Origin: a phage
Length of the DNA: 56,700 nt
Sequence record: PZ544694.1
Direction: 5' to 3' (one strand)
Below the pieces are notes generated by a model. It was not told where the DNA came from. It saw only the letters and a list, made by a program, of their open reading frames with translations, and ran no database searches. Shown piece by piece: positions 1 to 17,511 of the stretch; position 1 is the first letter of the stretch; the number at the start of each line of letters is the position of its first letter. The position numbers and the translations under genes were made by a program.

Positions 1-276
1 ATGAGCCGTCCATGCGATGAAACTCTCGCAGTATTAAAACAGCGATATGTTGAAGCGAGCCGAGCATATCACGATTTACAAATCGGGGTGTCTGGCCGAG
101 TGTTTGTCGACCAAAATAGCGAACGTGTTGAATTCACCGCAGCTAACCGTCAGAGTCTACTTGCGTATCTTACCGGGCTACAACGTCAGATTTGTCAGTT
201 AGCCCCGAACGACCCGATCTGTAATTGCGGTGTCGGCTTCGGGTCAATTTCCGCACCACTAGGGGCGTTATTCTAA
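1..276 (+). CDS. head-tail joining protein, lambda gpW-like
   Basis: 91 aa; segment HDLQIGVSGRVFVDQNSERVEFTAANRQSL aligns with lambda gpW ([29 protein letters not shown]); next to portal and terminase ORFs. Confidence 0.6.
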   Translation: MSRPCDETLAVLKQRYVEASRAYHDLQIGVSGRVFVDQNSERVEFTAANRQSLLAYLTGLQRQICQLAPNDPICNCGVGFGSISAPLGALF

Positions 277-1401
277 ATGAAATCAATCAAGGAACTTGTC
301 GCGAGAAGTGCGAACAATCCCCCGGAGGTTAAAGCACAAGGCGGTTATGAGGGTGCTCAGCGAAACTCGCGAGAAATGTATCGCTGGACGCCCGCAATAG
401 TCTCTCCGGATCAGGAATTAGACGGCGGACAAAAAGAATTAGCCGATGCCCGGGTTCAAAACGTTATCCAGAATGACGGTTTTGCGTCCGGTGCCGTATC
501 GATACATCGAGATAATATCGTCGGCTCTCAATACATGCTAAACGCTAAGCCGAATTTGTCCGCGCTAGGACTAAAAGGAGCTGACGCCGAAGCATGGGAG
601 GAGGAGTTTCAAGACGTCGTAGAGTCGAAATTCAACGTGGCTGCGGACTCAACGGAAAACTGGTTTGATGTCACACGACGCAATTCTTTTACCGGCTTGG
701 TTCGCCTCGCGGTGGCCCAAGCACTGATTTCCGGTGAAGTATTGGCATCGGCAGAATGGTCAAGAACCGCAGGTCGTCCTTTCAATACGGCCATTCAAAT
801 GATTAGCCCGCATCGACTGAGCAACCCGAATAACTCGGCCAACACGAAAAACATTCGAGGCGGTGTTCATGTCGATGCGTTCGGACGACCAATCGGGTAC
901 TACATTCAAAACAGTTTCCCGGGAGAGAGTTTAATCAACGGTGAGAATCAAATGTGGCGATATGTTCCATCACGCAAACCGTGGGGACGTCGACAGGTTA
1001 TTCACATCATGGAGCAAATTCTCCCGCACCAAAATCGCGGTATCTCAGACATGGTTGCAGCATTGAAGACCATTAGAATGACTAAGAACTTTCAGGAGAT
1101 AACGCTACAAAACGCGGTAATCAATGCCTCGTATGCAGCCGCAATTGAGTCGGAGCTACCACCGGAAGCCGTTTACGCTCAGTTAGGTTTAGGGCAACGT
1201 CCGTTCGGCGAGATTATCCATGAGATGATGACGAACGCAGCATCGTACTACGCGACTGCTAAAAACATGGAAATAGACGGCGCCAAGATCCCGCATTTAA
1301 TGCCCGGCACTAAGTTGAACTTAAAACCGATGGGGACTCCCGGCGGGATCGGCACGGACTTTGAGGAGTCGTTACTACGCCACATCGCAGCATCGTTATA
1401 A
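277..1401 (+). CDS. portal protein, lambda gpB family (N-terminal ~70 percent only)
   Basis: 374 aa colinear with lambda gpB: SIHRDNIVGS, MISPHRLSNPNN, INASYAAAIESEL, AKIPHLMPG, FEESLLRHIAASL; ends with TAA where homologs continue. Confidence 0.85.
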   Translation: MKSIKELVARSANNPPEVKAQGGYEGAQRNSREMYRWTPAIVSPDQELDGGQKELADARVQNVIQNDGFASGAVSIHRDNIVGSQYMLNAKPNLSALGLKGADAEAWEEEFQDVVESKFNVAADSTENWFDVTRRNSFTGLVRLAVAQALISGEVLASAEWSRTAGRPFNTAIQMISPHRLSNPNNSANTKNIRGGVHVDAFGRPIGYYIQNSFPGESLINGENQMWRYVPSRKPWGRRQVIHIMEQILPHQNRGISDMVAALKTIRMTKNFQEITLQNAVINASYAAAIESELPPEAVYAQLGLGQRPFGEIIHEMMTNAASYYATAKNMEIDGAKIPHLMPGTKLNLKPMGTPGGIGTDFEESLLRHIAASL

Positions 1402-3468
1402 ATGGCTAAATACAAAAATCTCTTTGAGATCGCGGTCAAGATGTCGGATAACTTACGACCCCCGGAAAGGTTGACCGTTTCTAATGCAGCATCTCAATAT
1501 CGATATGTAAATTCTCCCGGGTCGTATGTAGGCCCGTGGTTGAATACAACAACGCCGTATATGGTCGAACCAATGGACGTATTAACTTCGCGCAATCACA
1601 GCAAGATGGCGTTTGTAGGCCCGGCACAGTCAGGTAAAACCGACGCGATTATCATTAATGGCGTGTCATACTCAATCAAAGTCTCACCGATGGATACAAT
1701 GGTATTCTGTCCGACAATGGCAGCCGCCCGAGACTTTTCTATGCGACGTATTGATCGTCTTCACCGACACAGCCCGCTAATCGGCGAGCAATTGTTGAAA
1801 GGTAGAGACACCGACAATAAATTCGATAAACAATACATTACAGGTATGATGTTAACTATCACATACCCTACCGTGACCGAATTGGCCGGACGACCGGTTC
1901 CAAGAATATTGATGACCGACTTTGACCGTATGGACGACGATATCGGCGGTGATGGTAATCCATTTGACTTGGCAACACAGCGTACAACAACCTTTGGTTC
2001 GTTTGCTATGACTATGGCCGAATCGTCCCCGTCGAGAGAGATTCTTGACCCGCACTGGATAGCTAAGTCACCGCATGAGGCTCCGCCGTGTACCGGTATT
2101 ATTGCGCTTTACAACCGTGGGGATAGACGACGTTGGCAATGGCCGTGTCCTCACTGTGACGAATATTTCGAGGGTAAATTCGAGCATCTAACGTGGGACA
2201 ACGGAAAACAGCTATCTAACCGAGAGAAAGCAGAAACCGTACAAATGGTATGCCCGGAATGTGGTTGTTTGATCCACCCCGACGAACGCTTTGAAATGAA
2301 TTTATTCGGAGTGTGGGTTCCGGAGGGTTGTAAAGTTGATAAGAGCGGGAGACTTACGGGCAAAGCCCCTCATACCGACTTCATTTCTTACTGGCTCCGC
2401 GGTACGGCAGCCGCCTTTACGACATGGCAAAAACTGGTAAACATCTACCTCGATGCCCTTGACGAATATCAACGGACGTACTCAGAAGAAGCCTTGAAGA
2501 AATTCTGGAATAACAACATGGGTGAGCCGTATCAGCCTAAGTCGTTAGAATCAGTCCGCGCACCGGAAGCACTGAAAAGCCGGTCATCAGATTACCCGCT
2601 AGGCATGGTTCCGAATGACGTTCGATTCCTCGTAGCAACGATAGACGTTCAATTGAATAGCTTCGTAGTACAGGTGTTCGGTATTTCCCCGGGTTCACCG
2701 TATGACACTCATGTTATAGACCGGTTCTTCATCAACAAGTCGGAGCGTAAGGACGAAGACGGCGACGCAATGATCTTACAGCCGGCGACATACGAAGAAG
2801 ACTGGAAACTTATCGAAAAACAGGTAATAGATAAAGAGTATCCGTTGTCAGACGGTAGCGGTAGAATGATGTCAATTAAGATGACCGGTTGTGACTCCGG
2901 GGGTAAATCTGGCGTAACCGGCATGGCATACGCGTTCTATCGATATTTGAAGACAAAGAATAAACATGCTCGCTTCATCTTATTGAAAGGTGGCACACGA
3001 GTAACAGACCCGAGAACCCGTATTAGCTATCCGGACTCTAACCGGAAAAACGATAAGAATGCAGCTAGAGGAGAAATCCCGGTATTATTCTTAAACTCGA
3101 ACTTGTTGAAAGACGCATTAAACGGACGACTAGATTGTATTGAGCCTCACAAGGGCTATTATAATATGACTAGGGAATTACCGGACGAATTTTTCTCGGA
3201 GCTATGCGCCGAAACGAGAACCGCGAAAGGTTGGGAGAATTTAGCGCAAGCCCGAAACGAAGCATGGGACTTAAGCTACTACTGTTTGGGCCTTTGTACG
3301 TCTCCGGAGTTATTACGAGTAGAGTCGATAAATTGGGACAACCCCCCAACGTGGGCGGAGGAATGGGATAATAATACGATGGTCAGGGAACCCGAGGAAG
3401 AAAAACCATTCGCCTTTCAACCTCGACCGATGTTAGACTTTAGCCGTTTAGGTGAACTATTAGGATAG
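1402..3468 (+). CDS. terminase large subunit (GpA family)
   Basis: 688 aa; Walker A-like GPAQSGKTD; CPHC/CPEC Cys pairs; FTTW, VATIDVQ, MTGCDSGG and NEAWDLSYY blocks colinear with lambda gpA. Confidence 0.85.
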   Translation: MAKYKNLFEIAVKMSDNLRPPERLTVSNAASQYRYVNSPGSYVGPWLNTTTPYMVEPMDVLTSRNHSKMAFVGPAQSGKTDAIIINGVSYSIKVSPMDTMVFCPTMAAARDFSMRRIDRLHRHSPLIGEQLLKGRDTDNKFDKQYITGMMLTITYPTVTELAGRPVPRILMTDFDRMDDDIGGDGNPFDLATQRTTTFGSFAMTMAESSPSREILDPHWIAKSPHEAPPCTGIIALYNRGDRRRWQWPCPHCDEYFEGKFEHLTWDNGKQLSNREKAETVQMVCPECGCLIHPDERFEMNLFGVWVPEGCKVDKSGRLTGKAPHTDFISYWLRGTAAAFTTWQKLVNIYLDALDEYQRTYSEEALKKFWNNNMGEPYQPKSLESVRAPEALKSRSSDYPLGMVPNDVRFLVATIDVQLNSFVVQVFGISPGSPYDTHVIDRFFINKSERKDEDGDAMILQPATYEEDWKLIEKQVIDKEYPLSDGSGRMMSIKMTGCDSGGKSGVTGMAYAFYRYLKTKNKHARFILLKGGTRVTDPRTRISYPDSNRKNDKNAARGEIPVLFLNSNLLKDALNGRLDCIEPHKGYYNMTRELPDEFFSELCAETRTAKGWENLAQARNEAWDLSYYCLGLCTSPELLRVESINWDNPPTWAEEWDNNTMVREPEEEKPFAFQPRPMLDFSRLGELLG

Positions 3469-4053
3469 ATGGCAAAGGCACCGGTAACAACAAGACGTCG
3501 TAGCAATCAGCTAGACCGTGAATCCGAGTCGATGATCTTCGACGGGGTTAACATTACTCAGATCGCAAAGATATTTAACATGGAGCGTAGAGACGTTACG
3601 CCCAAGATCCGAGAAGTTCCTCCTTGCGGGGAACGAGGCGGGTATCCGATTTACAAATTAAATGAAGTGGCGCCATACCTAGTAAAGCCCCTGTATGATG
3701 TCGAAACCTACATTAAGCGAATGCACCCCAACGAGCTTCCTAAAATGCTCTCTAAAGAGTTCTGGAACGGAATGAAAGCTAAGCAGGACTACGAGTTGAG
3801 AGAGGGTGAGCTATGGCCTACCGACCAAGTAGAAGCGCTAATGTCGGAGTCTTTTAAACACTTACGCATGTCATTACTCTTAGTAACGGACTCACTGGAA
3901 CGTGAATCCACCCTCACCGATCATCAAAGAACCCGCATCACGGAAATGATAGACGGCGCGCTAAATGAGATGGCGCAAACACTCGTTGAGGCATTCGGAG
4001 ACCGGGCTAAGACGGAAGTCAAAGAGAGTACCGTAGGTGGCAAGAATGGCTAA
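3469..4053 (+). CDS. terminase small subunit (Nu1-like, HTH DNA-binding)
   Basis: 194 aa; N-terminal HTH-like IFDGVNITQIAKIFNMERRDV; C-terminal region resembles lambda Nu1; last 8 nt (ATGGCTAA) identical to first 8 nt of the terminase large ORF. Confidence 0.55.
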   Translation: MAKAPVTTRRRSNQLDRESESMIFDGVNITQIAKIFNMERRDVTPKIREVPPCGERGGYPIYKLNEVAPYLVKPLYDVETYIKRMHPNELPKMLSKEFWNGMKAKQDYELREGELWPTDQVEALMSESFKHLRMSLLLVTDSLERESTLTDHQRTRITEMIDGALNEMAQTLVEAFGDRAKTEVKESTVGGKNG

Positions 4054-5577
4054 ATGCGAAAGAAATTCTCGAAACGTACGGTTGGGAAGACTAAAGTTAA
4101 CCTACTTGAAGAAATCAGGAAAGGTAGAAAACTTGTTGAAAGACAACGGGAAGACTTACACGAGTATCAAGTTGAAGCCCGACAACTGGCGCATGACATT
4201 CCATTCTGCGGATTATTCCTCGAAATGGGTATAGGCAAAACCGTAATAACCGGAACGCTGATCGCCGACTTACTTGATAACTTTGAAGTAGATAGAGTTC
4301 TCATTATAGGCCCTCGTAGGGTGGCTAAAGTAACATGGCCGGACGAATTCATGGAGTGGGGTCATCTATGTGGGTATAAAGTAACGCCGGCAGTCGGAAC
4401 ACCCAAGGAAAGACTAGCGGTACTAAATAGCAATAGTCCTATCGTATCCATAAACCGAGAGAATGTAAGCTGGCTAGTAAACTATTACAAAGGCAAGTGG
4501 CCGTTCGATATGGTGGTCATAGACGAGTCGAGTTCCTTTAAGTCTCACAAATCTAAGCGGTTTAAGGACTTAACTAAAGTCAGACCGAGGATAAAACGAC
4601 TAATCGAGTTGACGGCCACCCCAAATGGCGAGGGATTTACTTCGTTCTTTTCTCAAATATATTTACTTGATTACGGTAAACGGTTCGGCCGTAGCTTCAA
4701 TAAGTTTAGGGATAAATACTTCGAGTACAACCCGTATAACCACAGCATCAAGCCGAGAGAAGATACGGAGATGCGTATCTTAGAAAAGATAAAAGATATA
4801 TGCGTAGTTATGCGAGCAGAAGACTATCTCGATCGAGTACCGTATGAGCCAAAGGTGATCCCGGTAAAACTCAATAAGAAGATCACCAAGGAGTATTTCG
4901 ACTTCCAAAAGAATTTAGTCATGATGATACCCGAAGCGGAAAACGTCATAGTGGAAGCGCAATCGGCAGCGATACTCGCATTGAAACTGCTACAAATGTG
5001 CTCCGGCGTTATTTACAACACGTACTATGACGGGATAGATGAGAACGAGGAGCCGATAAGGAAGACCGACATCTATGATATCCACGAGGAGAAACTAGAC
5101 GCGCTCGAAGTGTTTCTGGAAGAAGCAAAGGAAGCCGGAAAGAATGTTTTCCTTGGGTATCACTTTCGGTCATCACGAGAAAGAATATTAGCCCGATTCC
5201 CGGATATCGTCGAGATGGATAAAGACGGAAATAACATAAAACAATGGAACGCGGGGCGAATAAAAGTTTACATGGCACACCCTCAAAGTGCGGGGCACGG
5301 CTTGAATTTACAGCGGGGCGGACATACAATTCTTTTCTATGACATTCCGTATTCGTTCGAGAACTATGACCAATTTATCGGCCGGCTCGATAGGCAAGGT
5401 CAAAAGCACCGAGTAACAGTACACCACTTAGTTGCGGTCGGAACAAATGAAGATGGCCGAACAGTCCAACTAGCCGACCGCCACGTTTATAACAATCTGA
5501 GACGTAAGGAAGAAAACCAAGATTGGGCCTTGAAGACCTTACGTGATCTCAGAAAAGCGATGAAAAAGGAAGTTTAG
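4054..5577 (+). CDS. SNF2-family (DEAD/DEAH-like) helicase
   Basis: 507 aa; motifs GIGKT (I), VVIDESS (II), LTATP (III), QSAGHGLNLQ and QFIGRLDRQGQ (VI). Confidence 0.85.
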   Translation: MRKKFSKRTVGKTKVNLLEEIRKGRKLVERQREDLHEYQVEARQLAHDIPFCGLFLEMGIGKTVITGTLIADLLDNFEVDRVLIIGPRRVAKVTWPDEFMEWGHLCGYKVTPAVGTPKERLAVLNSNSPIVSINRENVSWLVNYYKGKWPFDMVVIDESSSFKSHKSKRFKDLTKVRPRIKRLIELTATPNGEGFTSFFSQIYLLDYGKRFGRSFNKFRDKYFEYNPYNHSIKPREDTEMRILEKIKDICVVMRAEDYLDRVPYEPKVIPVKLNKKITKEYFDFQKNLVMMIPEAENVIVEAQSAAILALKLLQMCSGVIYNTYYDGIDENEEPIRKTDIYDIHEEKLDALEVFLEEAKEAGKNVFLGYHFRSSRERILARFPDIVEMDKDGNNIKQWNAGRIKVYMAHPQSAGHGLNLQRGGHTILFYDIPYSFENYDQFIGRLDRQGQKHRVTVHHLVAVGTNEDGRTVQLADRHVYNNLRRKEENQDWALKTLRDLRKAMKKEV

Positions 5578-5865
5578 ATGACTGTTAGAGAGAGCAAAGT
5601 CGAATCGGATATCCGAAAATACGCTTTGGCCCGAGGCTGGTGGGTTTCTAAATTTACTAGCCCCGGTAAACGAGGCGTACCAGACCGGATATTCATTAAA
5701 AACAGTTTTGTAGTTTTTATCGAAATCAAACGCCCCGGAGAGAAGCCGTCGAAGCAACAAGAATTACGCATGGCCGAGATGAAGCGCTACGGGGCTTTAG
5801 TATATTGGGTGGATAATTTAAACGATGCGAAAGAAATTCTCGAAACGTACGGTTGGGAAGACTAA
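5578..5865 (+). CDS. VRR-NUC domain nuclease (PD-(D/E)xK fold)
   Basis: 95 aa; GVPDRIFI ... VFIEIKRPGEKPSKQQ pattern typical of VRR-NUC; last 41 nt identical to first 41 nt of the SNF2 ORF. Confidence 0.6.
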   Translation: MTVRESKVESDIRKYALARGWWVSKFTSPGKRGVPDRIFIKNSFVVFIEIKRPGEKPSKQQELRMAEMKRYGALVYWVDNLNDAKEILETYGWED

Positions 5866-7899
5866 GTGGAATCGAAAAGAACGTTAATTTTTGACTATGA
5901 AACATATAGCGAACTAGACATAAAGAAAGTAGGCGGTCACAAGTATGCACAGCACCCGTCTACTGAAATTCTAATGGTAGCGTGGAAGTTTACTGACTCG
6001 GACGAAATCGGTTTTTGGGACAACACAATGCCCGAAGAAGATTTAGACGAGTTAAAGGGATATTTGCGCGACGATAACATCATAAAACGGGCATTCAACG
6101 CGCAGTTTGAGCGGTTGATCACTAAACACGTCCTAGGTATCGACACACCGTATGACGTCTGGCGTTGTACGATGGTGGCTGCGTACCACCGAGGTTTTAC
6201 CGGCGGGTTAGACATGGTTGGTAAGGCTCTAGGTTTTAAAGGGGATAAAGCAAAAGACGCAGCAGGTAAACGCCTAATTCAGAAATTTTGTAAACCAAGA
6301 AAGCCAACTAAACTCGACAAAAGTACAAGACACGATGCGGAATCACACCCGGAAGAATGGGAAGCATTCGGAGCCTATTGCCGACAAGACGTGATAGCCG
6401 AAGAAAATATCGACCGCCGTCTGAGTGACATCAAGTATGACATGATCGAATTTGAGTGGGAAGTTTACGCGTTAGACCAGAAAATTAATGACCGCGGAAT
6501 AAATATCGATAACGACTTCATCGAAGCAGCAATAAAGATGGCCGAGACACGCAAGCCACAGATTATCGATGAAATGCGAGAACTTACAGGGCTAGCCAAT
6601 CCCGGGTCTCAGAAACAACTATTAGCGTGGCTACAACAAGAGGGATACCCGTTCAACGACCTATTAGCTGACACCGTGAAAAAAGTCATAAACGAGTATC
6701 CGGACAATGGGATCACAGAAAAAGCGTGTCGAGTTCTTAAACTTCGTCGTAAATCTAACAAAACCTCTCTAAAGAAATACAACAAAATGTTAGATATTGA
6801 AAACGACGACGGTAGGGTACGCGGAACAATTCAATGCTACGGGGGTTCTCGAACCGGACGATTCGCCGGGCGGGGCTTACAAACTCACAACTTCGTAAGA
6901 ACACCGAAGATACTTGAAGACGTCGAAGCTACGGAAATCGCTAAAAAGCTAGTTCTCGACCAAGACATGTGGGCTTTAAACGTTTTTGCTGGCGAACCCA
7001 TGGATATGTTGCCGGGGCTACTACGATCCGCACTAATCCCAACGGTAGGTCGTCGCTTCGTTGTAGCGGACTTGTCATCAATTGAATCGGTAGTAATAGG
7101 TTGGCTTACCGGCTGTAAGTGGTTCCTAGATACCTTGCGGGCTAAAAAAGACTTATATCGCGCATTCGCCTCAGCATGGCTAAAAATTCCTTACGAAGAC
7201 ACCCTCCCATTCCGAGGAAAGGCAAAACCGGCCACACTAGGTTGCGGATATCGACTAGGCGGTGGCGAACTTATTGACGGTAAGAAAACCGGACTTTGGG
7301 GTTACGGTGAAAACATGGGAGTCATGCTAACACAAGAGGAGGCTCACGCTTCGGTAGACGCATTCCGAGAGTTGTGCCCTGAGATTGTTGACGGTTGGTA
7401 TAAACTTGAAGATTGCGTAAAAACCACCATTAAGACGCACAAGACAACCCGATGGAGATCGTTAGTATTCGGGTTTAAAAAACCGTTCTTATGGATTAAG
7501 TTGCCATCGGGGCGGAAACTTTATTACTACCGCCCACGCTTAGTAACAAACACCTACAAGAACCGCAGAGGTGAGACGTACACTCGTCAAGAAATAATGT
7601 ACGAGGGTAAAAAAGATCAAGGCGGTTGGGGTGTTCAAACCACGCACGGCGGGAAATTGATTGAGAATATCGTTCAAGCCATAGCAAGAGATGTCCTAGT
7701 AAACGGCATGTTTAATGCGGAAGAAATAGGTTTCGATATCGTATTCCACGTTCACGATGAAATCATAACGGAAGTCGACGAAGATGACCTGTTAGGGCTA
7801 GACGACCTCATTGATTGTATGGCAGCACCGATATCGTGGGCGCCGGGACTACCATTAGGAGCAGCAGGGTGGGAGGGGTATTTTTACCGTAAAGATTAA
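5866..7899 (+). CDS. DNA polymerase, family A, with 3'-5' exonuclease domain
   Basis: 677 aa, GTG start; exo motif LIFDYETYSELD; pol motif A-like VVADLSSIESVV; motif B-like KAKPATLGCGYRLG; motif C FHVHDEIITE. Confidence 0.8.
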   Translation: MESKRTLIFDYETYSELDIKKVGGHKYAQHPSTEILMVAWKFTDSDEIGFWDNTMPEEDLDELKGYLRDDNIIKRAFNAQFERLITKHVLGIDTPYDVWRCTMVAAYHRGFTGGLDMVGKALGFKGDKAKDAAGKRLIQKFCKPRKPTKLDKSTRHDAESHPEEWEAFGAYCRQDVIAEENIDRRLSDIKYDMIEFEWEVYALDQKINDRGINIDNDFIEAAIKMAETRKPQIIDEMRELTGLANPGSQKQLLAWLQQEGYPFNDLLADTVKKVINEYPDNGITEKACRVLKLRRKSNKTSLKKYNKMLDIENDDGRVRGTIQCYGGSRTGRFAGRGLQTHNFVRTPKILEDVEATEIAKKLVLDQDMWALNVFAGEPMDMLPGLLRSALIPTVGRRFVVADLSSIESVVIGWLTGCKWFLDTLRAKKDLYRAFASAWLKIPYEDTLPFRGKAKPATLGCGYRLGGGELIDGKKTGLWGYGENMGVMLTQEEAHASVDAFRELCPEIVDGWYKLEDCVKTTIKTHKTTRWRSLVFGFKKPFLWIKLPSGRKLYYYRPRLVTNTYKNRRGETYTRQEIMYEGKKDQGGWGVQTTHGGKLIENIVQAIARDVLVNGMFNAEEIGFDIVFHVHDEIITEVDEDDLLGLDDLIDCMAAPISWAPGLPLGAAGWEGYFYRKD

Positions 7900-8505
7900 A
7901 TGGCAAAACTTAAACCAGTAAAACGTATTAAACATGAAGGTAAAACAGTAGCGGTAATCTATGAAGACGGCCACGTCCGAATTGATAATGTTCGCTTGTC
8001 ATACCCACACTTAGCAACACCACAAGAGGGTGATGACGGCAGTAAAAAGTTCGGTGCTACATTCTTATTAGACAAGGACATTCATTCTGAAACAGCCGAA
8101 GTCTTAAAAGATTTAGCAGCTAAAACAGCGAAAAACGCGAAAGTGAAAGTCCCGTCATCGAAGTATTTCATCAAAGATGGTGACGAAGAATTTTCGGACA
8201 AACCTGAATGTGAAAATATGTTTGTTATCTCCGCCCGGGAAAAGAAACGTCCTGTTTGTCGAGATGCTGACAAAGAAGAAATCGACGTAGACGATATTGA
8301 AGAAATCCTATACGGCGGTTGCTATGTTAGTGCCTTGATTGGTCTTTGGGTTCAAGATAACAAATACGGAAAACGAGTTAACGCTAACCTCCGTTCAATC
8401 AAATTCATCAAAGACGGCGAGCCGTTCGGTGCTGAAAGAATCGATGATTCCGAAGCGTGGGACGACGAAGACGAATGGGGTGAAGGCGAAGAAGACGACA
8501 TCTAA
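7900..8505 (+). CDS. putative ssDNA-binding protein (DUF2815-like) with acidic C-terminal tail
   Basis: 201 aa; N-terminal RLSYPHLATPQ...FGATFLL resembles DUF2815 phage proteins; C-terminal DDSEAWDDEDEWGEGEEDDI; next to DNA polymerase. Confidence 0.4.
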   Translation: MAKLKPVKRIKHEGKTVAVIYEDGHVRIDNVRLSYPHLATPQEGDDGSKKFGATFLLDKDIHSETAEVLKDLAAKTAKNAKVKVPSSKYFIKDGDEEFSDKPECENMFVISAREKKRPVCRDADKEEIDVDDIEEILYGGCYVSALIGLWVQDNKYGKRVNANLRSIKFIKDGEPFGAERIDDSEAWDDEDEWGEGEEDDI

Positions 8506-9834
8506 ATGGATAAATCATTTTTACATCGACTTATGTTGGCTTGCGAAAATGACGGACATTCGATATTCGCACCGTCATACTCCGCAACTTGGATGAATTG
8601 CCCCGGGTCGCTAGTACCTAGCATCTTGGAGGAAGATTCAGCCGGGTTCGAGGCAGCCGAGGGAACCATCGCCCACGCTATTGCTGAGGAGTGGTTGAGA
8701 ACCGGGAACAGGCCCGACCACTTATTAAATACAACTCAGGTACACGAGGAGAACGGAAATCGATTCGAGATCCCGGTCGACCACGAAATGTTCGAGTATC
8801 TTCAAGAATACATTAAGATGTGCGGTGAGAACAAAGGCGATCAGTTTGTAGAAACTAAAGTGTGGTTCACGGACTTAATGCCGATCGCCAACCCGGACGC
8901 AGACGAGCTAAACGGGGAAGATGAAAGCCCGATTAAGTTTATCCGACAAGGCGGTACGTGTGACCACGCTGTATGCCAACCCGGTAAATTAATCATAACC
9001 GATTTGAAATACGGGCAATTCATTCACGTTTCTACTGACGACAATACTCAATTGAAATTGTACGCATACGGATTCTTTAGAGAGTTCGACGAAAAGTATC
9101 ACTTCGAAGATATAGAGATCCGTATCTGTCAACCGAGAAAATATAATTTTGGCCGGTTTAAGATGACCCGTTCGGAGATTATCGCTTTCGGGGAGCGAGT
9201 GAAAAAAGCCACCAAAGAAGCGTGGAGTATGGACGCTCTACGTTACCCAAGTGAAAAGGCTTGCGAGTGGTGTAAGATATCCTACAAATGCCCGGCGAAC
9301 TTCGCAAGAATACTAGATCTCAAGAACGGCAGATACAGCCCTAACCCATTCGGATACTCGGCGGACGACATGGCAAGTATAAAAGATCTCCTCAGAGAAG
9401 AACTAAATTTACAATTAAAAGAGACTTCCCTATTGACATGGGAGGAAATTTCGTTAATATACCCACATCGCAAGCCGATAGAGAAGTGGTTCAAAGATGT
9501 TGAGAAAGCAGCATCAAAACGGATCATGGAGGGTAAGCCGATAAAAGGCTTGAAGATGGTAGCGAAAAGAGGGACTCGGCAGTTTGTTGAGGAGTCCACG
9601 GCCACGGAAGAACTAGAATTTGTAGGGCTAGACGAAAGTCAAATAAACCCCACAAAGATGATATCCCCGAAACAGGCCGAAACACTATTGAAAAAGCTAG
9701 GATATGATAAAGATGTTGTTAAAAGCATCTTGTCTGACCTGACTTTTACAAAACCGGGCGAACCGACGTTAGTTACAGAGGACGACCCACGAAAAGACCT
9801 AAACGAGAAGTATCAAGAAGTTTGGGACGATTAA
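8506..9834 (+). CDS. Cas4/RecB-like PD-(D/E)xK nuclease with Fe-S cysteines (DUF2800-like)
   Basis: 442 aa; N-terminal Cys (WMNCPGS), ITDLKYGQ (D-x-K), C-terminal C-x2-C-x5-C (CEWCKISYKC). Confidence 0.5.
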   Translation: MDKSFLHRLMLACENDGHSIFAPSYSATWMNCPGSLVPSILEEDSAGFEAAEGTIAHAIAEEWLRTGNRPDHLLNTTQVHEENGNRFEIPVDHEMFEYLQEYIKMCGENKGDQFVETKVWFTDLMPIANPDADELNGEDESPIKFIRQGGTCDHAVCQPGKLIITDLKYGQFIHVSTDDNTQLKLYAYGFFREFDEKYHFEDIEIRICQPRKYNFGRFKMTRSEIIAFGERVKKATKEAWSMDALRYPSEKACEWCKISYKCPANFARILDLKNGRYSPNPFGYSADDMASIKDLLREELNLQLKETSLLTWEEISLIYPHRKPIEKWFKDVEKAASKRIMEGKPIKGLKMVAKRGTRQFVEESTATEELEFVGLDESQINPTKMISPKQAETLLKKLGYDKDVVKSILSDLTFTKPGEPTLVTEDDPRKDLNEKYQEVWDD

Positions 9835-10317
9835 ATGTCACAACAAAACGGCGTTTTAGAAATGTTATTAGCTAGCTTCGCAACTTTAAACGAGAATATC
9901 GAGAAGTTAAACGGAAACATCGAAGCGTTGGTAGCTAACGGCGTAGCATCGGGTAAAACTGAAACTAATGCCGACACTAAAGCTGAAAGCAAATCTGAAA
10001 CTAAAGCAGAAAGCAAGTCAGAGACTAAGACAGAAGAAAAGAAAGCGGATAAAAAATCTAATTCTAAAAAATCTGAAAAACAAGCTGACAAGCCGGCGGA
10101 TAAACCTAAATACACTAAATCAGACATCACCGAAGCGCTTCGCAAAGTTCGAGCTGATATCGACAAAGAAGAAGCGGTTCGCATCATCAATGAAGTCGGC
10201 GGTGTTGAGAAGATGGGCCAGATCCCAGAAGATAAGTATGAAGCTGTTTTCCAAGCGTGTGAAGCATCTCTTAACGGTGAATCAGATGACGACTCAGGCG
10301 ATGACGACGATATGTAA
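9835..10317 (+). CDS. hypothetical protein, charged repeats (KAESKSETK) and acidic C-terminus
   Basis: 160 aa frame-1 ORF; low-complexity Lys/Glu/Ser repeats; no recognised domain. Confidence 0.4.
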   Translation: MSQQNGVLEMLLASFATLNENIEKLNGNIEALVANGVASGKTETNADTKAESKSETKAESKSETKTEEKKADKKSNSKKSEKQADKPADKPKYTKSDITEALRKVRADIDKEEAVRIINEVGGVEKMGQIPEDKYEAVFQACEASLNGESDDDSGDDDDM

Positions 10318-10653
10318 TTGACTGGATTGTCTCGTTTCGACACGGCCTATAATACTCGTTATGAAATCCCTGTCAACACCTTTTTGACGAAATTTTTATA
10401 TCGGGTATCCACCTCAATGTTAGGCCACCCGAAAAGTTTCATTGCCGGTAAGATGTTTATCGCCTTTTAGGTGATACTTTTATCCTCTCAACTGATATCG
10501 CTCTCAGGTGGCCGTAGATTTAAGTCCGTTCACGTATTGACTTTCTGTTTTAAGTGGAATATCCCGCGCGTTGACTTATCTATAATTCTTGCGGTATTAT
10601 CTGCGTCTACCCTCGGGTTAGATTTATCACAACTAAGGAGCAAGTATTTATGA

Positions 10654-10938
10654 ATGAAAGAGAGTAATTTCCCATCGTGGGCGAAGAACAATAAAACGGG
10701 TCGACTTAAATTCATGATCCGGCATTTAGCCAGTTTCGCTTCGGAGGAGGGCCACCTAGTTTTCCTGTGCCGAGACGCTAAACTGTCGGTTCGTGGTGTC
10801 TCACAAGCAATCGACCGAGGAGAATTCACCTTTCAAATGGCGGATAAACTCGTTAAGGCTGCAAGCGTTGCTGGAAACCCGGACGTCACAGTTATGAACC
10901 TATTAAAACCTATGGAATCATTTAAAGAGGACAAATAA
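10654..10938 (+). CDS. hypothetical protein
   Basis: 94 aa frame-1 ORF upstream of primase-helicase; AAGAGGA Shine-Dalgarno-like motif at its 3' end precedes the next ATG. Confidence 0.35.
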   Translation: MKESNFPSWAKNNKTGRLKFMIRHLASFASEEGHLVFLCRDAKLSVRGVSQAIDRGEFTFQMADKLVKAASVAGNPDVTVMNLLKPMESFKEDK

Positions 10939-13614
10939 ATGTCTAACGTTTTCAAATCTCGTGGCCCTGAACTTTTCGACAATGGATACGAAGTCGTACC
11001 TATTACTCGTATCGACGCAACTGACAGCAAAGGGAAATTATTGTCTGGCGCGGGTAAAGCCCCGGCGTTAAAAGGGTGGCAGAAAATAGAGATCACTTCT
11101 GACATCGTTAATGAATGGGCGACGGGTAGTCGCTCTCGCTGTGGTGTGGGTATTCGTACCCACCGTAACCCTGCTGTCGATATCGACTGTTTAGACGCCG
11201 AAGCGTCAGAACACATGACGGCTTTCGTTGAGTCGGAAGTGGGCTTTGCTCCTATCCGTGTTGGGCGTGAACCTAAAGCGCTACTCCTCTATTATACAGA
11301 ACGTCCTTTCACAAAAGTAAAATCAACCATCTTCGTTGATGAAAACGGGAATGAAAACGCTGTCGAGATATTAGGAAGCGGGCAACAATTCGTTGCTTAC
11401 GGTATCCACCCGGGAACTAAGAAACCGTATAAATGGGTTACTAAAGGCGAGTCGCCTGCGGAAAACCAAGCGGATTTTGACCTTGAAGAAATCACACTAG
11501 AAGACGCGAGAAAAATTATTGCGGAATTCGACCGGTATGCGAAAGAGCGCGGTTGGAAACCTTTAAAAAGTAAAAGCGGTACGGTCATCAAGCCATCTTT
11601 GGGCTACTACTTAGATGCTCCGGAAGAACTATCAGACTGGTCGGACGAGTCGGACTTTGACGATGATGAAGACGATTGGGTCACTACTGATGATATCACC
11701 GATAAATGGGACGGTACTTACGAAGAACTTTACGAAATCTTCGAAAATGATATCGAACCATCTTACGATTACCACACTTGGATTCCTGTTCTGGCTGCAC
11801 TTAAAGACGCCGAACGTGAGCCGGACGAGTTTAAAGAGATCGCGAGAATGTGGTCTGCTCGGGCCGAGGAGTCTTTCGATAACGATGCCTTTGAAGATAA
11901 ATGGGAAAACGGTAATTTCAATCGTGTTGGTAAATACGCTAAGACATTACGAGGAGTAATTGCCGAAGCGGAAAAGATCCAAGGCGTTCGCGAAATTGAG
12001 GACGTAGTTATACCTTTATTCGAAAAAGCTACTGACTTGGCCGAGTGGACTTTAGCTGCCGACCGCCTACGTGAAACGTGGGCTTTCGGTTTAGAAAGAG
12101 AGACGGCCATAAACATTGCTTGCGAAAAGTATAAGAAAGTCACTAACGGGTTAAAACTTACGGACGTTCAAAAGAAACGATATCTTAGTATCGATTACTC
12201 TCTCTTTGACGCTCCCGAATGGTTGGCTCCTTGGGTTTATTGTACTACGGATAACGAGTTTATTAACTTAGACAATAGAACCAGAATGAACCCTAAATCT
12301 TTCGCGAATGCCTATAACCGAGAAACTGTGAAGAAATTCGGGGTAGCTGCGGACGTTTTCGCCACGGTTGAAAGACCCGTTCCTGTTATCCACGATACGA
12401 TGTATTACCCGTTGATGCACGGTGAGATGCCTAAGAACAAATGGAAGCGGGTTCCGGGTATTAATGACAAGCGTGTTTTCGAATACAACGGTTTGACGTT
12501 CTTAAATACCTTTGACCATCGTTCCATGCCTGAGACCGCAACAAAAATTTCGACCGCTGGATATAAGGCGATCGGGGAGGTAAAACGATACTTCGAAATA
12601 CAGTATCCAGATCCAGACGAACGAAGACATGCGATGGACTGGATCGCGTGGGTTATCAATAATCCTGTTAGAAAGATTAACTATATGCTTCTCGTTCTTG
12701 GTGGTCAGGGTTCCGGTAAAACCATCGTTAAGAAGTTTATGGAACACATGCTCGGCTCTGATAACGTCTCTACGATTTCGAATAAGGTTATCCATGGTAA
12801 TTTTACCGGGTGGCAGTCTGGTCACATGCTCAAAGTTATTGAGGAAATATCGGTGAGTGGTCATCGCTACGACGTTATGAACTCATTGAAAGAGCCGATA
12901 TCGAATGAAACGTTACAGATCGAAGCGAAGTACCGTGACCCACGCCAGTGTGTGAATACTTCGTCGTATATGGCATTTACCAATGATGTTGGTGCTTTGC
13001 CTCTTACATCAAGTGACCGTCGCTTCTTGTTAGTTCGTAGTGCGTTCCAGCACAAGCGTGAAGTCACTGAATACCTACGGAAAGACCCTAATTACTTTAA
13101 ACGGTTTGAGAAAGCCTTTACTAAACACGCACCGGAGATCCGCAAATGGTTTAGCGAGTGGGAGTATTCCGAGGGCTTCAAACACGATGGTAACGCTCCT
13201 GAAACGGTGAGTATGGGAAGCATGTCTTTAGCGTCAGAAGACGATTTCACCTCCGTAGTAATGGGGGCCGTAGATGATTGTGAGAAAGAGTTAGAATTTA
13301 CATCGGGGATCACAGACGAAGTAATTTTCATTCCATCGGCAGTAGATTTAGTCCGAGATAGGTCTAAGGTTCCTAACGGGAAAATAATATATCGCATACT
13401 CGCTGAATATGGTTTCTTCCGGCCTGTGGATTCTCGTACACAAATAAGATTTAATGACGTAAGAGGACAAGTTGTTGTCGCGAATAGACATAAATGGCTC
13501 TATCCTGATGGGAGTGTCAACGTAGATAAGATTAAAGAGCATTTAGAGGAGAACGAACGCCGGGTAGAAGAACAAGAAAGCAAGAGAGAGTTAGAAGAAA
13601 CTGACGTTTTCTAA
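10939..13614 (+). CDS. DNA primase-polymerase / SF3 helicase (PrimPol N-terminus, D5/P4-type helicase C-terminus)
   Basis: 891 aa; N-terminal GYEVVPI...GKAPALKGWQ PrimPol-like; Walker A LVLGGQGSGKT, Walker B-like region further C-terminal. Confidence 0.7.
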   Translation: MSNVFKSRGPELFDNGYEVVPITRIDATDSKGKLLSGAGKAPALKGWQKIEITSDIVNEWATGSRSRCGVGIRTHRNPAVDIDCLDAEASEHMTAFVESEVGFAPIRVGREPKALLLYYTERPFTKVKSTIFVDENGNENAVEILGSGQQFVAYGIHPGTKKPYKWVTKGESPAENQADFDLEEITLEDARKIIAEFDRYAKERGWKPLKSKSGTVIKPSLGYYLDAPEELSDWSDESDFDDDEDDWVTTDDITDKWDGTYEELYEIFENDIEPSYDYHTWIPVLAALKDAEREPDEFKEIARMWSARAEESFDNDAFEDKWENGNFNRVGKYAKTLRGVIAEAEKIQGVREIEDVVIPLFEKATDLAEWTLAADRLRETWAFGLERETAINIACEKYKKVTNGLKLTDVQKKRYLSIDYSLFDAPEWLAPWVYCTTDNEFINLDNRTRMNPKSFANAYNRETVKKFGVAADVFATVERPVPVIHDTMYYPLMHGEMPKNKWKRVPGINDKRVFEYNGLTFLNTFDHRSMPETATKISTAGYKAIGEVKRYFEIQYPDPDERRHAMDWIAWVINNPVRKINYMLLVLGGQGSGKTIVKKFMEHMLGSDNVSTISNKVIHGNFTGWQSGHMLKVIEEISVSGHRYDVMNSLKEPISNETLQIEAKYRDPRQCVNTSSYMAFTNDVGALPLTSSDRRFLLVRSAFQHKREVTEYLRKDPNYFKRFEKAFTKHAPEIRKWFSEWEYSEGFKHDGNAPETVSMGSMSLASEDDFTSVVMGAVDDCEKELEFTSGITDEVIFIPSAVDLVRDRSKVPNGKIIYRILAEYGFFRPVDSRTQIRFNDVRGQVVVANRHKWLYPDGSVNVDKIKEHLEENERRVEEQESKRELEETDVF

Positions 13615-14030
13615 ATGCACGTTTGGTCAAAAAATGAGCGTACAAAATTTATACAGAAAAACGTTCAATATTTAACCGATTTTCGGGTGATCGGATTTTT
13701 TGAGTGAGTGAATTTCCAATTTTTCATTTTTCCATTTTTTGGTCGAAAAACACCGAAAATGCTGTACAAATTTTATACAGGGTTTTTTGACACAAAGTGT
13801 GTCGGTCATGTGTTCCGACGTGTGCGTGCCAGTTAAATGTTGTACAAAAATCACCCAACACACATGATCGAATTACCTTTATATAGCTTATATATATATT
13901 TTTCTATTTTTCCTTTCCTATCTATTTTTTCTTTCTTCTGGAATTTCTATTTTATTATCTATTACTGTGTTTGCTGTGTCAGAAAGAAAGTAATATAGTT
14001 GCTGTGTCAGAAAGAAAGTAATATAGTAAA
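13615..14030. promoter_or_regulatory. AT-rich repeat-containing region, candidate origin or regulatory region
   Basis: Three copies of AATG-nn-GTACAAA-type motif at 13633-13656, 13757-13780, 13834-13853; T-tracts; 28-bp tandem repeat at 13972-14027; only very short ORFs. Confidence 0.35.
13972..14027. repeat. perfect 28-bp tandem direct repeat x2 (TGCTGTGTCAGAAAGAAAGTAATATAGT)
   Basis: Read directly: copy 1 at 13972-13999, copy 2 at 14000-14027. Confidence 0.9.
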
Positions 14031-14333
14031 AACAATAACTTACCTTGGAACACCTATTGGAACATCAGCCGGCACAGCAATTTCCTGTGACACACCACCA
14101 GCCATGGTAATACCTAAAACGGCGCATAACTATTTGATATTATTACGGAATTACCTAAAATACCGGTCATTACGGTAAATGATGTCCCCTATTGCTAAAG
14201 CCTGTGCGTCGCTCTCCGTGCTTTCTAGAGAAGAATCACTTTTAAATCGAAAAAGGTACTTGGACGAGTTGTCCGGTTGGGCGGGGGTGCGCAGAGCCGT
14301 CTTCCAGAAATTTGTCCGGGATCTGCCATAGAT

Positions 14334-14624
14334 GTTTGGGTGTTCGGGTGGGCGGTGTTGTGGGTTAGATGTGCTTCAAATTGTAAGCGTGTGCGATTGT
14401 GCGAGGCGATCGCGGTGTTAGTTGTCGGTCGTATCCGTTGAGCGGGGGTATAGCGCCTCGGGTGAACACGCCGATCGGGAACGTCGTTTTTACGTTTTGT
14501 GCGGGTGTTCGGGTGTGCGGTTGTACCGCATGACGTTTTTACAAATATAAATGCGGTCGCGCCAGCGCCTACCCACCCAACACCACCACCCCAAGCCCTC
14601 ACTCTCCCCCATTCCCCCCCACCC
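14334..14624. repeat. G-rich imperfect direct repeats followed by a C-rich tract
   Basis: GGGTGTTCGGGTG-type motif at 14334-14366 and 14494-14528; C-rich tract about 14566-14624 (CCCACCCAACACCACCACCCC...). Confidence 0.6.
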
Positions 14625-14766
14625 TATGGAAAATTGCCGTAAAGCCATGTGTTGCGTCCTCAGCGTGTTTTGCCCGCTAGGTAAGGCCGATGTATTACCT
14701 ACGATGAGTTATGCCCGTGTGGTTCGATTGAGGGCGGAAGACGGCGCTTTGTTTGTTCCGACTTAA

Positions 14767-15006
14767 ATGAGCATTCTCAAGATGCTACTCTCCGGTGTGT
14801 ACAACGTGGGCGCCGTGTGTTTCTTCGGCCTAATTTCGATTTATATTCTCTCGTTCTTTTTCCGCGCCCTACAAAACCACGGTTTCGACGGTCTACACCG
14901 CACTACGTTAGTTCTCGAATCAATCGGCGCTATCATGATGGTCGTCTTCATGGTTTGCGTTGCGATCTTGGTGTTCGCCGGAGGCGTCGCCCTAACAATC
15001 CGGTAG
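14767..15006 (+). CDS. small hydrophobic membrane protein, hypothetical
   Basis: 79 aa, two or three predicted TM helices (VCFFGLISIYILSFFF; IMMVVFMVCVAILVFAGGVAL). Confidence 0.4.
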   Translation: MSILKMLLSGVYNVGAVCFFGLISIYILSFFFRALQNHGFDGLHRTTLVLESIGAIMMVVFMVCVAILVFAGGVALTIR

Positions 15007-15585
15007 ATGAGTTGTAACTGTTTCGATCGTATTCAAAAATCGATGGCTGATCGGGTGGCCGGTAAGTTGCCGAACGGCGCAATAATACACTCGGCGGAGT
15101 GGAAAACAGAAGTGTTAGCTATTGAAAATAAAAAGTTGAAAACCCGATATTTTCTAGACTTCACCATAGAGTATCAAGAGCGTAGACCGGACGGGACGCT
15201 CTACTCGACGGTAACAAAATCTGATTTTCCTGTGTTTATGAATTATTGCCCGTTCTGTGGCGTAAAGTTCGAGGAGGACGAACAAACTCAGGATCAGGAA
15301 GACCGTTTTAAATTCCCTGCGCTAGTCTACGTCAAAAATGGAAAAGACCCCATCGCACACACGGGGGCAACGTTACAACGAAGTGGGACAGAACACCCTC
15401 GCGGAATGTTTGCGGAGTACGTGAACGTGCGAACCAATGAGCGGATTTACTTTTCTGAGTCGTTGATGTCCTCCCGCCTAGACGGTGGCGATTACGTCGA
15501 GATCCCCGACGACTGGGAACAACTCAGCGACTATTGCCAGAAAGACATAATCGCAGAACGAAAAGCACGAGGCGGTCGAAAATGA
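15007..15585 (+). CDS. hypothetical protein with Cys pairs (CNC...CPFC)
   Basis: 192 aa frame-1 ORF; possible zinc-ribbon cysteines. Confidence 0.45.
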   Translation: MSCNCFDRIQKSMADRVAGKLPNGAIIHSAEWKTEVLAIENKKLKTRYFLDFTIEYQERRPDGTLYSTVTKSDFPVFMNYCPFCGVKFEEDEQTQDQEDRFKFPALVYVKNGKDPIAHTGATLQRSGTEHPRGMFAEYVNVRTNERIYFSESLMSSRLDGGDYVEIPDDWEQLSDYCQKDIIAERKARGGRK

Positions 15586-15798
15586 ATGGAAATAATCAAC
15601 GCTTGGCCGTTTTGTCTCGGTGTCGTTTTGATGGTGTTAGGGTTCGGCGTGGCTGTCCTGTGTATCGTGGGGACGAACAAAGCGACCCGAAGCGAAACCT
15701 TTGAGAAATTACGCGCTGTAAGTTTAGCCGGAATCACCTTTGTGATGGTGGGCGCGTGTTTCGTCATCTACTCGTCTGTTAGGAGTCAATTATTATGA
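15586..15798 (+). CDS. small membrane protein, hypothetical
   Basis: 70 aa, two hydrophobic helices. Confidence 0.4.
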   Translation: MEIINAWPFCLGVVLMVLGFGVAVLCIVGTNKATRSETFEKLRAVSLAGITFVMVGACFVIYSSVRSQLL

Positions 15799-16488
15799 AT
15801 GATCGTATTAACTGGTTGTACTCAAAACACGTTTGACATGAAGATCCACACTAAAGCGGGCGCCGTTTTCCATACAAATATTAGCTTTGAAGATTTCCGC
15901 ACTAAAGCCAGTGGGGCTTCGTACCACTTGCATAAAATGGGTCATGAACTGGGCGACGTTGAGTCTCTTGGCATGGTTCCGGAAGATAGGTTTAACCGTG
16001 TGCGCTTTTGGGCGCATGGCATGGAAAAGCTGATCGTAGCGCATAATACCGGCTTTCACTCGTTCGACTTTCTCCACGTTGATTTATTGCCGATAAATAC
16101 ACTACTAGGTGAGGTCAAAACGCCGTTAATCATTCCGTCGTTGATTGGTGGCGTGAATCTCGGCACATGGAAAAACGATTGTTATTTAATTACCTCACCC
16201 TTGGCGAAAGATAACGGTAAATCGGTTCTAGTATGTCAAGGGGAGAAAGTTCTAGAGGACGAGGAACTAACGCAATCAGAGCTAGACGCGGGGGAGAACT
16301 TGAACACACTCACCGTATTAACTGACCTGCAAACACTCCGCCAGCCTTACCTAGTCAGCGATGGCGATTTATTTTGCGACCAGTTCGATTCTAGCGTGGG
16401 GATTGTGTTAAACGTTGTCGCGGACACCTACGGGGATATTGTCATTAACCCACACGGAATAGCAAATACTCAATTTATGGATCGCTAG
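15799..16488 (+). CDS. hypothetical protein
   Basis: 229 aa frame-1 ORF; AGGAG upstream; ATGA stop/start duplicated at junction. Confidence 0.5.
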   Translation: MIVLTGCTQNTFDMKIHTKAGAVFHTNISFEDFRTKASGASYHLHKMGHELGDVESLGMVPEDRFNRVRFWAHGMEKLIVAHNTGFHSFDFLHVDLLPINTLLGEVKTPLIIPSLIGGVNLGTWKNDCYLITSPLAKDNGKSVLVCQGEKVLEDEELTQSELDAGENLNTLTVLTDLQTLRQPYLVSDGDLFCDQFDSSVGIVLNVVADTYGDIVINPHGIANTQFMDR

Positions 16489-17289
16489 ATGAAAAAGATT
16501 ACTATCGGTGCTTCAGAACGTGCGGAATTACGTCAAATTTGTAACGTTATCAAAGCTAATCCTACGCACTATGAAACGGTTACTTACACGAATAAAGACG
16601 CGACCGCATCTATCAAAGTTAAATATTCCGCCGGCGAAAAACTAACGTATAAAGCCTTTATCACCGTTATCGTGGGCGAGAAAGTGGCAACCGAAACCGT
16701 AGAAGCCGGAAGTTTTAATATCGTCGAGAACAAGATCCGTGCGTGTGGTTCTGTTGACTACTTGACCGAGTTATCAAATAAAACCGTATCCCTAGATAAA
16801 CCGCTTCACGTATCATTGCGTAAATCAATGCAACCAAGCGCACAGCAACGTAGAGGAATCAAGGAGATGACGCGTAAAGCGGAGAAAGCCGACCCATTGG
16901 ATTTAGTGCTTATGGATAGCCTCTTGATCGTTCGCAAGTCGTTTGGTGTCGTATATCGTGGCCAAGTTCTAAACTTCAAAAGTGCTATAAACAATCAAGG
17001 GGCGATCAAGATTATCGTGTCTATAAATACGATGTTTAATAACGACTTACAATATGTGTGGTCAATGATATACACCCTCGACCGTTTGGCCTACGATATA
17101 CGCAATGGGAACCTCGCCATTCTATCGCATAGTGCGCCGACGAAAGTTTTACGGGTGTACGGTTGGCGCGGTGACTATGAGACTATCGCAGTAAACCAGA
17201 AAGCCCGACTGTCATCAGTGATCGAGAATTTCATGATTGAGGGTGGTTCTCGTCGCATTGAGTTTCGCCCGTTACCTCAAAGAAACTAA
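16489..17289 (+). CDS. hypothetical protein
   Basis: 266 aa frame-1 ORF, no recognised domain. Confidence 0.5.
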   Translation: MKKITIGASERAELRQICNVIKANPTHYETVTYTNKDATASIKVKYSAGEKLTYKAFITVIVGEKVATETVEAGSFNIVENKIRACGSVDYLTELSNKTVSLDKPLHVSLRKSMQPSAQQRRGIKEMTRKAEKADPLDLVLMDSLLIVRKSFGVVYRGQVLNFKSAINNQGAIKIIVSINTMFNNDLQYVWSMIYTLDRLAYDIRNGNLAILSHSAPTKVLRVYGWRGDYETIAVNQKARLSSVIENFMIEGGSRRIEFRPLPQRN

Positions 17290-17511
17290 ATGAAGCCGGT
17301 AAATAATCCAACCTTGGATAAGACGATCGAGATTTACCAAGAGCGAGGCGAAAATATTTATTACGTTGTTGCGGGCGGTGTATGGATCGGGACGATTGCC
17401 AAGACACCACACCACCTCAAGCCGTGGACTTTCTGCGGGCAAGGTGTGAGCCTTGGCGGGGATTCCTTGGAAATGGTTAAAAAATCCGTGGTTACGATGC
17501 TCACACGGTAA
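17290..17511 (+). CDS. hypothetical protein
   Basis: 73 aa frame-1 ORF. Confidence 0.35.
   Translation: MKPVNNPTLDKTIEIYQERGENIYYVVAGGVWIGTIAKTPHHLKPWTFCGQGVSLGGDSLEMVKKSVVTMLTR

Follow-up and report, generated by a model that had tools for sequence, protein, structure and literature searches.

Escherichia phage E21 (MN604053.1 / NC_052983.1; Casjensviridae, Lavrentievavirus) has a genome of 58,536 bp, and both of its records have a natural arrangement in which intergenic DNA is kept and 64 CDS lie on both strands. When a description of E21 was sought in the literature, only the unrelated phage vB_EcoP_E212 turned up. On the E21 minus strand the transcription order is DNA polymerase, small nuclease, SNF2 helicase, small terminase (TerS), large terminase (TerL), adaptor and portal, followed by protease, decoration protein, major capsid protein, tail terminator, major tail protein and chaperone G/G-T, and then by the tape measure, distal tail proteins, J-like protein, fibres and lysis genes. 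In natural order these minus-strand blocks match the lambda-type late operon, or Chi-like (Casjensviridae) layout, with no notable difference, the matches being TerS, TerL of the GpA type, the adaptor W, a lambda-family portal, an S49/ClpP protease, the decoration protein D, the major capsid protein E, the tail terminator, the major tail protein, a chaperone with a predicted -1 frameshift, the tape measure and a J-like protein. On this strand TerS is immediately preceded by the polymerase, nuclease and SNF2 helicase genes, as it is in other Lavrentievavirus genomes. In the independently annotated Proteus phages pPM_01 and vB_PmiS_Inception, polymerase, endonuclease, helicase, TerS and TerL likewise follow one another on one strand; the helicase start precedes the endonuclease stop by 41 nt in each of them, and pPM_01 has an 8-nt TerS/TerL overlap too. 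A further related record is that of Proteus phage Q29 (OM962992.1), for which manual annotation with ORFfinder and SnapGene and figures with CDS on both strands have been published (PMC10410936). Concatenated "CDS from genomic" FASTA files form a third point of comparison, since in them CDS stand in sense orientation and are sorted by coordinate, with overlaps doubled and intergenic DNA absent.

The stretch of DNA analysed here, called the window, is 56,700 nt long and shares all of these properties of a CDS file. It is almost certainly a derived pseudo-sequence, in which the CDS of E21 were concatenated in coordinate order, and not contiguous natural DNA. Lambda-like gene order, which is seen in natural E21 minus-strand coordinates and in the relatives, is not found in the window as written. 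When the window was read from base 1 to the first stop, with reading restarted at the next base and the procedure repeated, it resolved into 85 ORF tiles, every one of which (85/85) had an ATG, GTG or TTG start and a stop. The tiles jointly cover positions 1-56700 and leave 0 intergenic bases. The same tiling of shuffled sequence gave about 1,030 pieces, with a start codon opening just 37-56 of them, and on the two natural E21 strands start codons opened 42 of 939 and 34 of 972 pieces, which places start-codon tiles at about 4-5% in shuffles and natural E21 strands versus 85/85 in the window. A gap-free layout of this kind is the signature of concatenated coding sequences and is foreign to any natural genome, and all three properties tested for membership among such artefactual pseudo-sequences were found. 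The tile set itself, with 85 calls, a 90-nt minimum, six TTG starts and numerous tiny ORFs, looks like the output of a permissive phage caller; it matches neither the deposited nor the RefSeq annotation of E21 (64 CDS each).

1-56700, plus strand: the whole window, 85 predicted CDS of Escherichia phage E21 joined head to tail (tiling and exact mapping to MN604053.1)

In a megablast search of a phage collection, window positions 1-20000 matched E21 with 99.9% identity, in 24 pieces. By exact string matching, 83 of the 85 tiles were placed uniquely and perfectly on E21; the remaining two, which each hold one half of the portal gene, are identical to E21 save for 3 added bases each. Identity is therefore 100% over 56,694 nt, which are all the non-synthetic bases of the window, and it holds tile by tile. 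The mapped 56,694 nt and the 6 synthetic nt add up to 56,700, and 56,694 less 281 doubly covered nt plus 2,123 uncovered nt restores the 58,536 of the genome. E21 differs from the window in its length of 58,536 bp, in having genes on both strands, 2,123 bp of intergenic DNA and 64 deposited CDS, in that its overlaps are present in single copy, and in that its portal gene runs uninterrupted across the record origin. Tiles are arranged by rising E21 coordinate, every tile in its own coding orientation, with one local exception, namely the adaptor tile (E21 1128-1403), which is placed ahead of the portal N-terminal fragment (E21 1-1122). Sorting by left or right end, by start or stop codon, by string order or by wrapped coordinates does not reproduce the order of this pair. 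That misordered pair, together with the ATG- or TAA-capped end fragments, also sets the window apart from an ordinary "CDS from genomic" file, and neither feature can be attributed to a specific tool.

It could be proposed that the artefact sits in the public record, as it does with Q29, and that the window faithfully reproduces a deposit already corrupted. Deposits of this type do exist, but the two E21 records are natural, with their intergenic DNA and 64 CDS distributed over both strands, and the phage collection contains no record that spans the window contiguously, the best match to 1-20000 being the one that falls into 24 pieces. We consider this origin of the artefact highly improbable.

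The Q29 record deserves attention in its own right. A 400-nt probe across the TerS|helicase boundary of the window was compared with phage records, and 32 of them matched; in 31 of the 32 the halves of the probe lie at two separate places. Only OM962992.1 contains the junction of the TerS end with the helicase start in one piece, at 95.8% identity, and all 18 of its features (18/18) are given on the plus strand, in window order. Both Q29 and the window, read on the plus strand, run from the J-like gene through tape measure, capsid, protease and portal to TerS, and in both the minus-strand genes have been individually reverse-complemented with coordinate order kept. Unlike the window, Q29 keeps its intergenic DNA, has only some of its genes flipped, and is 96-99% identical to E21 and not 100%; its flips were moreover made in place, breaking overlapping genes, which is not the case in the window.

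It might be argued from this record that the window order is natural, that is, that a real phage exists in which replication and late genes are inverted gene by gene into the reverse of lambda order, as the Q29 record states with its contiguous junction and its 18 plus-strand features. Were such an inverted layout present in a living phage, the genes of late operons would be read from one strand in the opposite order, and every gene would require expression signals of its own. The alignment of Q29 with E21, however, is a mosaic in which about 25 single-gene segments are in minus orientation and yet ascend on both genomes, these inverted segments alternating with unflipped spacers and unflipped genes, and some 25 precise single-gene inversions are not plausible. 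An upstream Shine-Dalgarno (SD)-like motif was found for 7 of 21 flipped genes versus 23 of 29 unflipped genes (Fisher p=0.0015), while the motif reverse-complemented after the stop was found for 9 of 21 flipped versus 4 of 29 unflipped genes. In the same record the portal, TerS and J-like genes have been demoted to "similar to" misc_features. Taken together with the two-strand CDS of the Q29 paper, the mosaic, the lost SD-like motifs and the misc_features indicate that the deposit has genes reverse-complemented in place, and OM962992.1 is a damaged deposit and a cousin of the window artefact. The window, furthermore, is 100% E21 and not Q29, has no intergenic DNA and carries synthetic caps, so a natural window order is extremely improbable. 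The earlier note had set against its own reading any natural genome with the window order on one strand; the junction does occur in the Q29 record, but Q29 is itself artefactual. The corruption of OM962992.1 may be useful for curators to know.

The reading that the window is a concatenation of E21 coding sequences is borne out by the duplicated gene ends. Three pairs had been pointed out in the earlier note, and all three proved exact: positions 5825-5865 equal 4054-4094 (41 nt), 4046-4053 equal 1402-1409 (ATGGCTAA, 8 nt), and 49947-49965 equal 49711-49729 (19 nt). The 41-, 38-, 28-, 19- and 17-mers each have two copies in the window and one in E21, and the long duplicates cannot be chance. 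The 8-mer ATGGCTAA occurs five times in the window, and the ORF at 20686 begins with it too; taken alone it is within chance expectation. It is nevertheless the true TerS/TerL overlap, as its mapping shows. Suffix/prefix comparison of all neighbouring ORFs gave reverse-order duplicates of 8, 41, 4, 4, 17, 7, 8, 14, 11, 19, 11 and 4 nt, and forward-order duplicates of 4, 4, 28, 4, 7, 14, 4, 4, 8, 4, 8 and 38 nt. All 30 natural overlaps of neighbouring calls (281 nt) are duplicated in the window at exactly their natural length, and in 30/30 the direction of the duplicate follows the source strand, being in reverse order for minus pairs and in forward order for plus pairs. This strand rule, the duplicated overlaps and the mapping on which they rest are direct observations. 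It is vanishingly improbable that the 41-nt, the 19-nt and the remaining duplicates represent real direct repeats of the genome, such as recombination or regulatory sites flanking genes. They are exact, and the length of several goes far beyond what chance would give, but every one is single-copy in the natural E21 genome, always extends from a start codon to a stop codon in adjacent tiles, and agrees exactly in length with the overlap of the natural genes.

When the tiles were assigned to their source strands, the window was found to consist of the following blocks, all written on the plus strand of the window and placed by mapping.

1-10317, E21 minus strand: 10 tiles, transcription order reversed; as written, adaptor W, portal N-terminal fragment, TerL, TerS, SNF2 helicase, nuclease, DNA polymerase, ssDNA-binding protein, exonuclease and a hypothetical gene
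10318-14178, E21 plus strand: 8 tiles including primase, natural order, with forward duplicates of 4, 1, 4 and 28 nt
14179-18894, E21 minus strand: 12 tiles, reversed, with reverse duplicates of 4, 4 and 17 nt; missed by the earlier note
18895-18999, E21 plus strand: a single tile, a 34-aa ORF with a TTG start, within a minus-strand region
19000-21255, E21 minus strand: 7 tiles, reversed, with reverse duplicates of 7, 8 and 14 nt
21256-30147, E21 plus strand: 20 tiles, the early region including RdgC, natural order, with forward duplicates of 4 to 38 nt
30148-56700, E21 minus strand: 27 tiles, reversed; lysis genes, tail fibres, J-like protein, tape measure, chaperone, major tail protein, head genes and portal C-terminal fragment

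The 34-aa ORF at 18895-18999 had no PHROG match and is not in the deposited E21 annotation; it is probably an over-call. Gene order had been described as reversed in 1-10317 and 38647-56700, and both regions are indeed reversed, but these limits are too narrow, as 14179-18894, 19000-21255 and 30148-38646 are reversed as well. The claim that overlaps between 15 and 31 kb run forward holds for 21256-30147 only (and outside that range for 10318-14178), but not for 15007-21255, which bears reverse-order duplicates of 4, 4, 17, 7, 8 and 14 nt. The order of head and tail genes on the plus strand had been given correctly.

The longest duplicate involves the helicase and nuclease genes, which in the window are neighbours of the terminase genes.

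1402-3468, plus strand: large terminase TerL CDS, with GpA ATPase and nuclease domains (mapping)
3469-4053, plus strand: small terminase TerS (DUF1441) CDS; the 8 nt at its 3' end (4046-4053) recur at the TerL start (1402-1409)
4054-5577, plus strand (E21 5585-4062, minus strand): SNF2-family helicase CDS (Pfam and exact mapping; relatives annotate the same 1,524-nt gene)
5578-5865, plus strand (E21 5832-5545, minus strand): small nuclease CDS, 95 aa (phrog_93 and deposited name)
4054-4094, plus strand: 41-nt nuclease/helicase overlap (E21 5545-5585), second written copy (mapping and copy count)
5825-5865, plus strand: the same 41-nt overlap (E21 5545-5585), first written copy (mapping and copy count)

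The helicase matched Pfam SNF2-rel_dom (PF00176) over residues 54-281 with 34.8 bits versus a gathering cut-off of 24.9, and motif I is present in LHEYQ...LEMGIGKT; Helicase_C (PF00271) reached 21.3 bits, just under its cut-off of 23.5. For the nuclease, PHROG gave phrog_93 "endonuclease" (E 9.6e-28) and phrog_5702 "Holliday junction resolvase" (1.7e-6), and no Pfam family was matched at E<=0.001; its VRR-NUC label rests on the depositors' annotation ("VRR-NUC domain-containing"). It had been suggested that in nature the nuclease lies upstream of the helicase and overlaps it. This was confirmed by the mapping to E21 and by the relatives, which have the same 41-nt overlap on one strand, and the overlap is probably real biology. 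The deposited E21 helicase start at 5414 is a methionine within motif I (LEMGIGKT); both the LHEYQ motif and the point where the Pfam match begins lie upstream of it. The ORF has a single alternative start codon, at E21 5585, and this is the start that relatives annotate. As a separate observation that may help curators, the deposited start cuts short the ATPase motif I region.

The third duplicate lies in the tail assembly chaperone region, where three tiles were called.

49711-49869, plus strand: the final 52 codons of the "T" extension in the -1 frame, given as an ORF of their own (phrog_11703 positions 183-232 of 232)
49870-49965, plus strand: 31-aa zero-frame ORF over the T region, which shares 19 nt with the tile before it (the third duplicate)
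49966-50418, plus strand: tail assembly chaperone "G" (Pfam Pre_tape_measure), ending in slippery A_AAG_GGT

The 3' end of chaperone G reads ...AAG AAA AAG GGT TAA, with the heptamer A_AAG_GGT, of the canonical slippery type X_XXY_YYZ, immediately before the stop. The -1 frame after G runs open as far as E21 51318 and overlaps the start of the tape-measure gene at 51328, and a conceptual G-T fusion of 234 aa matched phrog_11703 over positions 1-232 of 232 (E 1.6e-60). With a slippery heptamer, an open -1 frame and end-to-end family homology all present, the chaperone fits the lambda G/G-T type of predicted programmed -1 frameshift. The tiles at 49711-49869 and 49870-49965 are not independent genes, and the latter, for which no homologue was found, is probably spurious.

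The two tiles that could not be placed perfectly on E21 stand at or near the opposite ends of the window.

277-1401, plus strand (E21 1122-1, minus strand): portal N-terminal 374 codons, then a TAA at 1399-1401 foreign to the genome
56182-56700, plus strand (E21 58536-58021, minus strand): portal C-terminal 171 codons, preceded by an ATG at 56182-56184 foreign to the genome

In blastn comparisons with E21, positions 1-1122 of the N-terminal fragment align at 100% and its last 3 nt are unaligned, and positions 4-519 of the C-terminal fragment align at 100%. The Pfam profile Phage_portal_2 (lambda-family; 354 positions) is divided between them, with positions 2-320 in the second tile and 322-353 in the last. 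This split of the portal profile between the two tiles indicates that the portal gene crosses the record origin, was cut there, and that the fragments were capped to resemble complete ORFs. The origin-spanning portal gene of E21 and its predicted G-T chaperone frameshift are unannotated or partly annotated, which may also be of help to curators.

A simple procedure almost certainly produced the window. On this reading a de novo gene caller made 85 calls on the linear E21 record (MN604053.1 / NC_052983.1); every CDS was then taken out in its own 5' to 3' coding orientation and joined head to tail by ascending coordinate, all DNA between genes being discarded. With CDS in sense orientation and in coordinate order, minus-strand runs appear on the plus strand in the reverse of their transcription order, and extraction CDS by CDS causes bases common to two overlapping genes to be written twice. 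In minus pairs the shared bases close the later tile and open the earlier one, and vice versa in plus pairs. As the record origin cuts the portal gene, its two fragments fall at opposite ends of the window, one closed by a synthetic TAA and the other opened by a synthetic ATG. The gene-calling program and the capping step are inferred. Counting against this explanation are the adaptor-before-portal order, the 85 versus 64 CDS, and the existence of Q29 with its contiguous junction, a record that is itself artefactual. The earlier note had read the window as minus-strand genes flipped singly and listed by coordinate, and the 83 of 85 exact tiles, their ascending order and the strand-wise duplication of overlaps bear it out; the points that it missed were the zero intergenic DNA, the extra reversed blocks, the split and capped portal, and a Q29 record with a comparable artefact.

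It had also been proposed that reordering the minus blocks and collapsing the overlaps should restore a canonical operon with sensible ribosome-binding-site spacing. The direct mapping to E21 accomplishes this restoration, and the ribosome-binding context favours the natural order as well. For that comparison the set of SD-like motifs was broadened, since strict AGGA/GGAG/GAGG misses the AAGGGG-type sites of structural genes, and the background was re-measured (about 17%); among the 52 genes with a product of 100 aa or more, a motif was then found upstream of 39 in their natural context versus 18 in the context of the window.

The reversed gene order and the duplicated gene ends thus stem from the construction of the window and not from any genome; they are not a real feature, and the finding of reversed order has no biological significance. 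Observations made on the window that concern adjacency, order, spacing, intergenic signals, repeats at ORF boundaries, strand asymmetry or missing non-coding DNA are artefactual and should be discounted. The underlying biology is ordinary, being that of a Lavrentievavirus (Casjensviridae) genome.

The origin of the Escherichia phage E21 record (MN604053.1) cuts the portal gene, which is therefore represented by two tiles (a tile being one predicted ORF) at opposite ends of the window:
window 277-1401 (E21 1-1122), portal N-fragment, with an extra TAA at 1399-1401
window 56182-56700, portal C-fragment, with an extra ATG at 56182-56184
Both the added TAA and the added ATG are absent from the E21 genome. 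In the deposited annotation the portal is given only as a 450-nt C-terminal piece (58021-58470), and E21 1-1122 carries no feature. At the window's start (1-1401) the tile for the adaptor (E21 1128-1403) comes ahead of the portal N-fragment, which is the sole break in the ascending coordinate order of the tiles and was reproduced by none of the sorting rules tried. The window is also without 2,123 nt of E21, spread over 52 gaps that take in every larger intergenic region where the coding strand switches, among them the following:
E21 17738-17898, absent from the window
E21 19499-19656, absent
E21 22222-22365, absent
E21 52022-52159, absent
For promoters, terminators and packaging sites the window gives no basis for judgement.

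Two start sites differ between the window and the deposited annotation:
window 4054-4224 (E21 5585-5415), stretch lost under the deposited helicase start
window 1402-1440 (E21 3482-3444), TerL start difference
The helicase start deposited for E21 (5414) lies inside motif I (MGIGKT) and cuts 57 residues from the N-terminal end, the LHEYQ motif among them; the only alternative start, 5585, is the one found in the independently annotated Proteus phages pPM_01 and vB_PmiS_Inception. The deposited TerL start (3443) lies 39 nt later than the call used in the window (3482). TerL of pPM_01 is annotated in the longer, 2,067-nt form, with an 8-nt overlap with TerS, and that of Inception is longer still.

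An unannotated programmed -1 frameshift is predicted from the sequence in the tail assembly chaperone (G/G-T):
window 49711-50418 (E21 52021-51318, minus strand), G/G-T chaperone
The gene holds a slippery A_AAG_GGT with the -1 frame open, and the conceptual G-T fusion (234 aa) matches phrog_11703 end to end; in the extension region the window's gene caller gave two small ORFs instead (52 aa and 31 aa). Of the 85 tiles, 21 were unmatched among the 64 deposited E21 CDS, in these parts of the window:
10318-10653
13615-14766
18895-19545
20116-20493
21385-21474
27586-27816
29932-30147
These are mostly of 29-60 aa, and several start with TTG or GTG; the ones searched against PHROG lacked a match. 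Over-calling into intergenic gaps probably accounts for many of them.

Among related records, Staphylococcus phage SVV09-A, Enterococcus phage AS-M1_NWU and Pseudomonas phage E21 share 96-99% identity with this Proteus/E. coli phage lineage; their host labels look doubtful, perhaps through contamination or mislabelling. In the public 'complete genome' of Proteus phage Q29 (OM962992.1), about 25 single genes are reverse-complemented in place, with the surrounding intergenic DNA unaltered, so that all features lie on the plus strand and the order of the late genes is reversed. The flipped genes have RBS-like motifs stranded on their wrong side, and genes that overlap are disrupted. OM962992.1 is likely to misdirect synteny analyses.
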